64,000 nucleotides of DNA from Candidatus Poribacteria bacterium (GTDB taxonomy: Bacteria > Poribacteria > WGA-4E > WGA-3G): assembly GCA_965214095.1 (NCBI GenBank), contig OZ243938.1, forward strand, positions 1,920,001 to 1,984,000, written 5' to 3'. The first letter of the stretch is position 1, and each line of letters starts with the position of its first letter. Positions 10,537-12,674 of this stretch are shown one piece after another. The translations under genes were made by a program, and so were the position numbers. The notes beneath the pieces are model-generated. The model saw only the letters and a program-made list of their open reading frames with translations. It was not told the DNA's origin and searched no databases.

Positions 10537-11280
10537 TCAACCATCATAACGGAGATTTTTGCCGTTGTCAGGTCCTCCCTGACCCCAAACCCAAACATTG
10601 CGGAAAAATGCCTGTTTTTCAGATGGTAACCCATCAATGATATGTTTTGGCACCGTCGGTTTGTGGAATTGACACCCAACAAAATTATAGCAATTAAACA
10701 CTGCAATTCGTGGACGATCCGGATTCTTCCAAGTGTCACCAGAATGACATAGGTTCTCAGTGAAGATAATCGCAGAACCAGGTGGACAACTATATGTCTC
10801 AAGGAGTGGTGAATCAACCTTACGATGTGTCTCTGGGATTTGGAAGTTCGATTTATGACTTCCGGGTAGAAACAGTGTGCCACCTTCACCTGCTTTCACT
10901 TCGTTCAATTCAAACACAACCCGTGTCAATGCTGAGTAAATTCTTCCATCATGGCATTGATAACTAAAGTTAGGGTTCACATTTCGCACACCACCGTGTG
11001 GTGGCGGTCCCCCATTTCCCTCAGACCTATAGGTGAACCAACTTGATTCCATACGAATTTCACCCAAAGTTTCTTTGAGAATATCAATTATAGTTGGATG
11101 GTCAATCAAGATTGAAGATGCACCGCCGGGAAATTGTCGCTCATGCGGAGGTAATGCCTCGGGATTTGTGCGAATTGTGTCAACTTGGGTTTTAATTTCA
11201 TTTATCTCTGAGGGTGTCAACACTTCTGGAATTAACAAATACCCTTTCAGATCAAAGATAAATTTCTGTTCTTCAGTCAT
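10537..11280 (-). CDS. Phytanoyl-CoA dioxygenase (PhyH) family protein
   Basis: FDLKGYL, GGTLFLPGSHKSN, FTENLCH; start MTEEQKF lies 9 nt after AGGAG. Confidence 0.88.
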   Translation of the reverse strand: MTEEQKFIFDLKGYLLIPEVLTPSEINEIKTQVDTIRTNPEALPPHERQFPGGASSILIDHPTIIDILKETLGEIRMESSWFTYRSEGNGGPPPHGGVRNVNPNFSYQCHDGRIYSALTRVVFELNEVKAGEGGTLFLPGSHKSNFQIPETHRKVDSPLLETYSCPPGSAIIFTENLCHSGDTWKNPDRPRIAVFNCYNFVGCQFHKPTVPKHIIDGLPSEKQAFFRNVWVWGQGGPDNGKNLRYDG

Positions 11281-11348
11281 AAGATTCATCTCCTCTAATC
11301 ATCGGGCAGGAGACCCCGCTGCTTTAGCACGGGGAGGAATGCCCGTTC

Positions 11349-12356
11349 CTATCTATATTGAAAGTTTAGTTTAGTTAACACCTTGAAATCTCTTTGTTTT
11401 GCACCCGTTGTCAATCGTTTCCCATCAATGCTATAGATTGAAAACAATCCTTTTGCGTTGACACCTGCTAATCTTGTCAATCCATATTTGATATGCTTGA
11501 CAAGTGTGTTCTTGACCAATCCTTCTTTTAGCAAAGTGCCACCATATCGTGAACGGATACCCCCTTTTTTCGGTTGTTCTCTGTGTAGATTGCGTCTGGC
11601 TATTGGTATAGGTGATATACAGAATATATCTGTCGTATCTGGTATGCTATCACCGCCGACAGTATGATAAGCAAGACACCAACTATCCACACAATGTGTG
11701 TCAAAGGTTTCTGCTAACTTCTGTTTAGACTTTTTCAACCCAAGCCTATCACGGATTTCCTTTGTTTCGTATCCTTGGAGTGTTAGCAGGTGCCATCGCT
11801 TCTTGATTTCAGTATAGAACCACTGCTTACCAACTTCCAATGGACTAAAAGATTGATTCCACTTTTTAGCGCGTTTGATAGTCCGTGCTTTGATGTCTTC
11901 TACACATACATGACTAATAGGATAGAGTTTAGATAACCAATTAAGTATCCTTAACTTCCAATCCCATCTCGCACGCGTGCCAGCAGGTAGACGTTCTCTG
12001 TTAGCAAGTTTGTTTGTCCTATTTTTCCGATTAGGACACTTCCGTGAACGCCTACATCTACGAAGTTCACGTCTTTTTTCAACCTTTTTACCAACCTTGT
12101 TATGTGCGTCTGCTTGCACATTCAGATAAGTATGTTTCTCTGATTTCACACTAAAGCCTTCTTTCTTACTACCAGGATCCACACCAACCACTATGTCTTG
12201 GAGTTCAGTGTCTGATGGATCAACATTTAGTCGGACGCAAAATATACCATTATTCCAAAAGGGGGTCGCTTTCCCTGTTTGTATCCAACGCCTCGCCCGT
12301 GAAGGTTTTGTAGGCATGAGAGGGTGTTGATTTTTGTCTATTACTGGAACTAAGAT
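11349..12356 (-). CDS. isrB: IsrB OMEGA RNA-guided nickase (RRXRR/PLMP, split RuvC, no HNH)
   Basis: PLMP, RuvC-I GVDPG, Arg-rich bridge RRELRRCRRSR, RuvC-II VED, RuvC-III HCVD; no HNH between II and III; ~335 aa from an ATC codon 7 nt after GGAGG. Confidence 0.88.
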   Translation of the reverse strand: MLVPVIDKNQHPLMPTKPSRARRWIQTGKATPFWNNGIFCVRLNVDPSDTELQDIVVGVDPGSKKEGFSVKSEKHTYLNVQADAHNKVGKKVEKRRELRRCRRSRKCPNRKNRTNKLANRERLPAGTRARWDWKLRILNWLSKLYPISHVCVEDIKARTIKRAKKWNQSFSPLEVGKQWFYTEIKKRWHLLTLQGYETKEIRDRLGLKKSKQKLAETFDTHCVDSWCLAYHTVGGDSIPDTTDIFCISPIPIARRNLHREQPKKGGIRSRYGGTLLKEGLVKNTLVKHIKYGLTRLAGVNAKGLFSIYSIDGKRLTTGAKQRDFKVLTKLNFQYR

Positions 12357-12560
12357 GTGTAAACCTCCGAAGAGTATATATTGCCCCATCCAGATCGGGT
12401 ATTCGTAGAGGAATCGGACTTGGGGAGCATCCGAAACATACATTGGACTGCCACGTTCAGAACACCCGATATATGACTGTAGAAAATAGTTTAACTTGTG
12501 GAGTGAACGCTTGGCATGCGCTTCGCACAAGCCCCGATGCTTTAGCACGGGGTTATTGAC
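12357..12560 (-). ncRNA. omegaRNA scaffold (guide supplied by the 5' flank beyond 12560)
   Basis: Lies between the element end and isrB; atcgggtgttc/gaatacccgat stem, cggatgctccccaagtccg hairpin whose CCCC loop can pair with downstream GGGG, terminal ctcttcggag hairpin. Confidence 0.8.
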
Positions 12561-12645
12561 CTCCTAAACACTGTTTTGGATTTTGAAGATTGTAGCAGGA
12601 TTCTACTTTAATTGGAAATGTAAAATGTTTAGGAGAAAAAAAGAC

Positions 12646-12674
12646 TTGACATCGGCGACTAACTCGGTTATAAT
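12646..12674 (+). promoter_or_regulatory. Consensus sigma70 promoter of argF
   Basis: TTGACA-17-TATAAT. Confidence 0.85.

Follow-up and report, generated by a model that had tools for sequence, protein, structure and literature searches.

A non-autonomous element, very probably of IsrB type, in Candidatus Poribacteria with a short omegaRNA scaffold supported by covariation

The stretch of Candidatus Poribacteria DNA analysed here (64,000 nucleotides, hereafter the window) carries on its minus strand, at positions 11290-12560, what is very probably a 1,271-bp non-autonomous element of the IS200/IS605 family and of IsrB type. As part of the same overall explanation, and with the same high confidence, the gene of this element encodes a 335-residue IsrB that has an N-terminal PLMP domain, a split RuvC domain with a bridge helix and a predicted C-terminal TAM-interacting region, and that has no HNH domain. 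The leader upstream of the gene is a real RNA scaffold, as demonstrated by covariation among relatives. Judged from sequence against the description given in PMC9581776, its architecture is the known group A, nearest to subgroup A2 (BbIsrB), and not a new kind. The principal features of the locus are the following.

12589-12618, minus strand: promoter-like sequence TTTCCA-18-TACAAT with a TG-extended -10 (consensus scan, 9 of 12 matches)
12561-12580, minus strand: flank supplying the predicted guide segment (20 nt by analogy with DtIsrB; PMC9581776)
12365-12560, minus strand: omegaRNA scaffold (52-sequence alignment, pair counts and HEARO match)
11349-12356, minus strand: isrB, 335 codons, from ATC at 12356-12354 to the stop codon at 11351-11349 (start set at the position of the relatives' ATG)
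11295-11348, minus strand: gene-distal element end (sister copies and their empty sites)
11290-11294, minus strand: AGGAG, five extra bases found in the window copy alone (compared with sister copies, the G021 empty site and G005)
11286-11289, minus strand: ATGA, insertion-site motif and predicted TAM, outside the element (empty sites of three copies)

The extent of the element follows from comparison of its copies. The genome to which the window belongs (5.25 Mb, four contigs) contains five of them, three being 99% identical to the window copy and one 93% identical, with unrelated flanks. All five start with identical bases at the position of window 12560 and are preceded there by five different flanks, so that the guide-side boundary at 12560 is exact. 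On the opposite side, the element passes the stop codon at 11349 and continues through a hairpin to ...GATTAG, its canonical last bases, at 11295; the same gene-distal end is found in 67 loci of relatives, and position 11290 includes the five extra bases of the window copy. The original prediction had therefore placed one end, 12560, exactly, but the other end lies at 11290 and not at 11349, where it had been set. Similar subterminal hairpins occupy both ends, at 12552-12532 (SL1) and at about 11346-11303 (with a CTAAAG loop). Together with a fixed tetranucleotide at the insertion site and the lack of target-site duplication, these hairpins give the element the features of the IS200/IS605 family, the window copy with its five duplicated bases being the exception. 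The isrB gene is the sole gene within the element, and no TnpA is encoded inside these 1.27 kb. In contigs from four runs, both junctions are intact in two (X1 and X2) and the element depth is about 4x that of its flanks; no empty-site joint is present in the contigs of these four runs, a material that cannot show RNA ends.

Empty sites in sister genomes, found for three of the five copies, locate the insertion point exactly 5' of ATGA (insertion point marked here by a slash). For the window copy, G021 has ...GGAG/ATGA, and for the copy L002 the same genome has ...CCCG/ATGA. The empty site of the copy L003 reads TAA/ATGA in four genomes, while G000 shows TAA, the element and then ATGA. The sister copies display no target duplication at the insertion site, and ATGA is present at the junction in all five copies of the window's genome. 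Among the relatives, the 67 loci whose distal end could be located show GATGA at the distal junction in 52 cases and GGTGA in 9, the six others being GACGA, GATAA (twice), GATGG, CAATGA and one truncated end. A longer target motif that would include the G, GATGA, was considered and rejected, since the TAA/ATGA empty site of L003 puts this G inside the element. The published IsrB TAMs are NTGA for DtIsrB, NTG for four orthologues and NTGG for BbIsrB, and a figure legend of the same paper lists ATGA among the TAM substrates assayed with DtIsrB (PMC9581776). Empty sites, junction counts in relatives and these published NTGA and NTG motifs all agree with the TAM originally proposed, an ATGA at the junction opposite to the guide.

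The window copy departs from its sisters by the AGGAG at 11294-11290, which lies between the canonical end and ATGA and repeats the flank bases 12565-12561 beside position 12560. The element interrupts a host gene of the PhyH family, and the AGGAG provides this gene again with a ribosome-binding site, 9 nt ahead of its ATG at 11280; the start at 11280 is supported as the true one by G005, which is without the first ATG. A consequence of the additional AGGAG is that a canonical excision joint would read AGGA and not ATGA next to the guide match. With these bases between its canonical end and ATGA, the window copy may be poorly mobile, immobile or unprotected.

The protein belongs to the IscB family and is of the HNH-less type. 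The open reading frame spans 11349-12548 on the minus strand (399 codons), and its IscB-family part is read from VPVIDKNQHPLMP onward; residue numbers below are counted from the ATC codon at 12356. A PLMP motif and an arginine-rich stretch can be read directly in the frame, the former aligning with the N terminus of DtIsrB and the latter with its bridge-helix region. A Pfam search returns RRXRR (PF14239, E value of 9.6e-35) as the sole family at E <= 0.1, with no HNH family at that threshold. The best solved relative is DtIsrB of Desulfovirgula thermocuniculi (8DMB, E value of 3.8e-37), and a profile built from 24 sequences matches the same entry at an E value of 9.7e-43 over profile positions 3-326 of 342, whereas for eight IscB structure entries the match is confined to the N-terminal 110-160 residues. 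All 24 aligned homologues share the RuvC residues D60, E153, H221 and D224, which align with the DtIsrB motifs. Because only 67 residues separate E153 (motif II) from H221 (motif III), there is no room for an HNH domain between them. An AlphaFold model computed from the shallow alignment of 24 sequences is poor (mean pLDDT of 52.5, pTM of 0.35, with pLDDT values of 76-87 at residues ~280-320), and the sequence profile was for this reason compared with the protein data bank in place of a fold search. These results bear out the identification of the gene from the letters alone as an IsrB with PLMP and intact RuvC motifs and without HNH.

The start of the gene is less conventional than had been supposed. 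At 12356, where a canonical ATG had been expected, all five copies carry ATC. The corresponding codon is ATG in most relatives, and ATC, CTG or GTG in others. The ATC is preceded by a GGAGG sequence at a distance of 6 nt, and 11 codons upstream the conserved RNA contains an in-frame ATG (12389-12387). Given the ATC codon, translation may be inefficient or may use this upstream ATG as its start. Between the copy of the window and the one of 93% identity there are 42 synonymous and 24 non-synonymous changes, corresponding to a dN/dS ratio of 0.14, which indicates purifying selection on IsrB and implies that the protein is produced.

The uniform ATC could also be the mark of a decaying relic, in which the change from ATG has abolished the production of IsrB, the five extra bases have frozen the copy, and only the ends and their hairpins still matter, as substrates of TnpA; the AGGAG, which makes AGGA and not ATGA the tetranucleotide beside the canonical end, is in keeping with this reading. 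However, all five frames remain open over 354-409 codons, the low dN/dS ratio is that of a constrained protein and the catalytic residues are invariant. The strong GGAGG and the upstream ATG offer means of initiation, and other relatives likewise dispense with ATG. Moreover, the 99% identity of three sister copies to that of the window implies recent transposition. We regard a relic as improbable.

The RNA upstream of isrB was examined through its relatives. The distance from the element end at 12560 to the codon at 12356-12354 is exactly 204 nt, with the end fixed by the five copies, which makes precise the value of about 204 nt given in the original prediction; the start position lies at 206-209 nt in relatives, and, counted from the same end, the final helix is complete at 196 nt. 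Among 271 matched stretches in species-representative genomes, 231 encode relatives. Eighty loci were kept, 78 from records named as Poribacteria and two from records of an 'uncultured bacterium', and a BLAST match to the leader is found in 79 of the 80. The alignment comprises 52 sequences, namely those of the window, the 93% copy and 50 relatives less than 95% identical to each other, chosen from 70 loci in which the first base could be placed. The helices are listed below in the order of the RNA, with names that follow the text and legends of PMC9581776.

12560-12554 with 12488-12482, minus strand: S1
12552-12532, minus strand: SL1
12531-12495, minus strand: SL2
12516-12512 with 12453-12449, minus strand: predicted pseudoknot 1, between SL2 and SL4
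12479-12477 with 12393-12391, minus strand: S2
12470-12460 with 12404-12394, minus strand: S3/S4
12457-12446, minus strand: SL4
12437-12411, minus strand: SL5
12425-12422 with 12387-12384, minus strand: predicted pseudoknot 2, between SL5 and the linker between S2 and SL7
12374-12365, minus strand: SL7

RNAalifold predicts 31 pairs in this alignment, 20 of them compensatory. The full assembled structure (59 pairs in 11 helix segments, with two pseudoknots) is paired in 92.5% of cells, against 82.9% in shuffled alignments, and 32 of its 59 pairs have changed on both sides, against 17.8 in the shuffles; none of 500 shuffles reaches the observed value of any measure. When the partners are slid by 1-3 columns as a control, pairing falls to 31-45% of cells. 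The pseudoknot between SL2 and SL4 is paired in 90.3% of cells, and its pair 49-145 covaries (GC in 32 sequences, AU in 17). The pseudoknot between SL5 and the linker, CCCC with GGGG, pairs in 99% of cells and is invariant, so that covariation is uninformative about it. SL7 is seen in 51 of the 52 sequences when these are folded singly, with several stem variants, and its 3' strand is the ribosome-binding site. S1 contains two mismatches in the window copy, and likewise in 30 of the 52 sequences of the alignment. The folding energy of the window RNA taken by itself is marginal (-58.3 kcal/mol, z value of -1.73, 12 of 200 shuffles as good).

Rfam gives no match at the gathering threshold across the whole window. 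A permissive scan finds HEARO (RF02033), today recognized as the omegaRNA of IscB type; the match occupies 12327-12560 of the minus strand and extends over the full model (1-211) with an E value of 8.2e-4. The score of 29.5 bits is far below the gathering score of 83, but the match starts exactly at 12560, the first base of the element, covers the whole model and has the orientation and position relative to the reading frame of a HEARO RNA; in loci of relatives, scores of 33.4-38.5 bits are obtained for six of eight. That the whole model is matched at the expected position speaks for kinship with HEARO, not for curated membership of the family. The cmscan alignment itself was dropped as a source of structure, since it mis-registers S1 and mis-pairs the closing stem. 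The structured leader that had been proposed directly upstream of the gene, reaching the element end, is thus substantiated by covariation and by this sub-threshold match, while of the covariance-model search and folding put forward as its check, the first remains below threshold and the energy of the single sequence is marginal.

The scaffold is short, as had been predicted: its 204 nt are about 58 nt fewer than the 262 nt of the DtIsrB scaffold, which together with a 20-nt guide makes up an RNA of 12 helices, and the IsrB RNAs in general are given as 'roughly 300 nt' (PMC9581776). The length, and HEARO scores of just 29.5-38.5 bits, might be taken to designate a new and distinct small-scaffold class of IsrB omegaRNA. 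Against this, every helix maps to the core set S1-4 and SL1/2/4/5/7 that the paper describes as common to six orthologues. What is missing corresponds exactly to the peripheral SL3, SL6 and SL8, whose positions hold only 6-8 unpaired nucleotides in the window RNA; according to the paper, some orthologues lack these elements or have degenerate forms of them, which in BbIsrB of subgroup A2 applies to all three, and they are partly dispensable, a truncation of SL8 being tolerated (PMC9581776). Their absence next to a complete core is what distinguishes subgroup A2 in that account. The predicted pseudoknot partners are likewise those reported for group A, namely SL4 for SL2 and, for SL5, the linker that precedes SL7 (PMC9581776). 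Finally, a 25-nt hairpin occupies the SL3 position in two of the 52 sequences (L036 and L074), a link to subgroup A1 that connects the clade with the A1/A2 pair already described. A class of its own is accordingly unlikely; of the predicted small-scaffold variant, the small size stands, and the architecture is the group A one of the published description.

That the conserved leader should be merely a cis-acting 5' UTR or a transposase-binding end, and not a trans-acting guide RNA, is hardly credible: SL1 does resemble the hairpin at the opposite element end, as recognition by TnpA would predict, and SL7 does contain the ribosome-binding site, but ~196 nt of covarying helices with a covarying pseudoknot pair far exceed the needs of a TnpA end, and the architecture matches that of the solved IsrB RNA as described in PMC9581776.

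For a guide RNA of this type, the guide would be provided by the flank 5' of the scaffold. The predicted guide flank of the window copy ends in ...CAGTGTTTAGGAG beside the scaffold, and the guide sequence in the original prediction (...aaaacagtgtttaggag) had been correctly read. A flank-derived guide is supported by the difference of this flank in each of the five copies, as expected of such a guide. The promoter-like sequence listed above is one of four such sites in the region, where shuffled sequences give 4.1 on average. The empty sites of G021 and G005 retain this sequence, which is probably part of the host gene that was interrupted. Transcripts initiated from it would begin ~21 nt before the scaffold, which we mention as a hint only.

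Target choice in the IS200/IS605 family is set by the DNA of the element and not by its protein. Genes for the Y1 (HUH) transposase TnpA exist elsewhere in the genome, as four full-length genes with products of 141 aa and one partial match, and each of the four shares an element of 1,826 bp with a neighbouring tnpB gene (PF07282, PF01385 and PF12323). These resident elements are flanked by GGTGA. The similarity of their ends to those of the isrB element, judged by eye, is one of hairpin design, and a BLAST comparison of the isrB element ends with the tnpA loci shows no similarity. With such flanks and dissimilar ends, mobilization of the isrB element by a resident TnpA is an assumption.

A mechanism can be proposed by extension from DtIsrB (PMC9581776) and from the GstIscB and GstTnpB systems, for which homing and mobilization in trans have been modelled (Meers et al., bioRxiv 10.1101/2023.03.14.532601). 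Transcription would enter from the flank, here probably via the promoter of the interrupted host gene, and the RNA would therefore carry ~20 nt of flank as its guide. TnpA, acting in trans, would excise the element and re-insert it. The rejoined donor site would then present the guide match followed by ATGA, IsrB with its omegaRNA would nick the non-target strand at this site, and repair or recombination from the sister chromosome would return the element.

With DtIsrB the Poribacteria element shares the domain order, the PLMP, RuvC and bridge helix, and C-terminal parts aligning over nearly the whole length, the lack of HNH, an RNA encoded 5' of the gene with the predicted guide at its 5' end, and a predicted NTGA-type TAM (PMC9581776). 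It differs from DtIsrB by the shorter scaffold devoid of SL3, SL6 and SL8, and by its pseudoknots: DtIsrB, of group B, is described with SL2-SL5 and SL4-linker pairings, which are swapped here to predicted SL2-SL4 and SL5-linker pairings (PMC9581776). The ATC start is a further difference, as is the host, a marine sponge symbiont here and D. thermocuniculi for DtIsrB. According to its records the Poribacteria host is a sponge symbiont, and it is assumed to be mesophilic. BbIsrB, which has been shown to be active (PMC9581776, section 8), resembles the present system more closely in its RNA, which is described as having core helices only, the SL2-SL4 and SL5-linker pseudoknots that are predicted here too, no SL3, and unpaired linkers where SL6 and SL8 would be; it prefers NTGG, whereas the insertion motif of the Poribacteria clade is ATGA or GTGA. 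GstIscB and GstTnpB of Geobacillus stearothermophilus are similar in the organization of their elements as reported by Meers et al. (bioRxiv 10.1101/2023.03.14.532601), being non-autonomous, with a transposon end that bounds the omegaRNA, with tnpA located elsewhere and short non-coding derivative elements alongside, and with the same proposed role in homing. Those enzymes are double-strand cutters, whereas by analogy with IsrB the enzyme here would be a nickase.

The element is an intact, ordinary copy of a known type of selfish element, and the present results are mostly confirmatory. They also show that a reading of the sequence made with no tools correctly called an IsrB element together with its guide and its TAM. 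Our literature search found no paper linking Poribacteria with IscB, and the IsrB, IscB or HEARO literature that was searched yielded no mention of Poribacteria. A more specific proposal, based on sequence and held only tentatively since we think it rather doubtful, is that the Poribacteria clade has among the smallest natural IsrB ribonucleoproteins (335 residues with a core-only scaffold of ~196 nt, active at ATGA or GTGA sites), and that in the window copy a captured host promoter, with a start ~21 nt before the scaffold, would directly set the length of the guide, while an AUC start kept under purifying selection would throttle the level of the nuclease. The large clade offers a rich natural covariation set for a minimal IsrB RNA, and by analogy it could supply a compact nickase with a guide RNA shorter than that of the solved DtIsrB.

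The distal end of the window copy of the IsrB element shows five additional bases, AGGAG, past the canonical end (...GATTAG, window 11295), and the same bases form the flank at the opposite junction. Insertion of IS200/IS605 elements does not normally duplicate the target, and no such duplication is present in the sister copies of the IsrB element, unlike the window copy. The AGGAG restores a Shine-Dalgarno site 9 nt ahead of the ATG of the host PhyH-family gene. The sister copy L003, in the same genome, is inserted precisely between two genes, directly after the stop TAA of the first and before the ATG of the second, and its empty site reads TAA|ATGA in four sister genomes. On the other side of the window copy, a carbamoyltransferase-family gene is preceded by a perfect match to the sigma-70 consensus, TTGACA-17-TATAAT, which is divergent from a promoter-like site facing the IsrB element.

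11280: ATG of the host PhyH-family gene
11290-11294: AGGAG past the canonical end
12354-12356: ATC at the isrB start position
12561-12565: AGGAG flank at the opposite junction
12646-12674 (+): sigma-70 consensus
12717: carbamoyltransferase-family gene
G000:C1:172740-174011: sister copy L003

The ATG start of isrB in relatives is replaced by ATC in all five copies of this genome (the same codon in L002-L005), despite which isrB shows a dN/dS of 0.14. Non-ATG codons also occupy the start position in other relatives, namely ATC (L084), CTG (L083) and GTG (L042, L063). Within the omegaRNA, two of the 52 aligned sequences (L036:1269-1518 and L074:1268-1517) have a hairpin of 25 nt at the SL3 position, where it separates S2 from S3; the remaining 50 have none there.

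A search of 40 relatives' genomes shows that the copy number of the IsrB-element family differs widely within the genus, with between 15 and 134 first-look candidates per genome; in the six genomes searched from one family within the same order, the element did not turn up.

The genome of the window also contains IS605-type elements encoding TnpA (141 aa) and TnpB (421 aa), as well as short derivatives and probable remnants.

C1 ~80.3-82.2 kb, 2.169 Mb, 2.384 Mb and 4.229 Mb (L110-L113): 1,826-bp IS605-type element, four copies
L010, L011, L012 (~1217-1561), L014 and L015: 345-bp non-coding element, five copies
L006-L009, L016 and L017: solo fragments of the IsrB element's distal end, ~43-63 nt matched

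The solo fragments, followed by GATGA in L006-L009 and by GATAA in L016 and L017, are probably leftovers of lost elements. In L111, the loop of an IS605-type end hairpin hosts a ~110-nt insertion with inverted repeats at its borders, which has the look of a small mobile element nested in another. The 345-bp element is a PATE-like derivative whose distal end is similar to that of the IsrB element and whose opposite end is similar to that of the IS605 element on the tnpB side; it may carry a TnpB guide RNA. GGTGA flanks all five of its copies and each of the four IS605-type copies, and the end hairpins of the IS605-type and IsrB elements have CTAAAG loops in common. The IsrB and TnpB elements seem to use a common transposition system.
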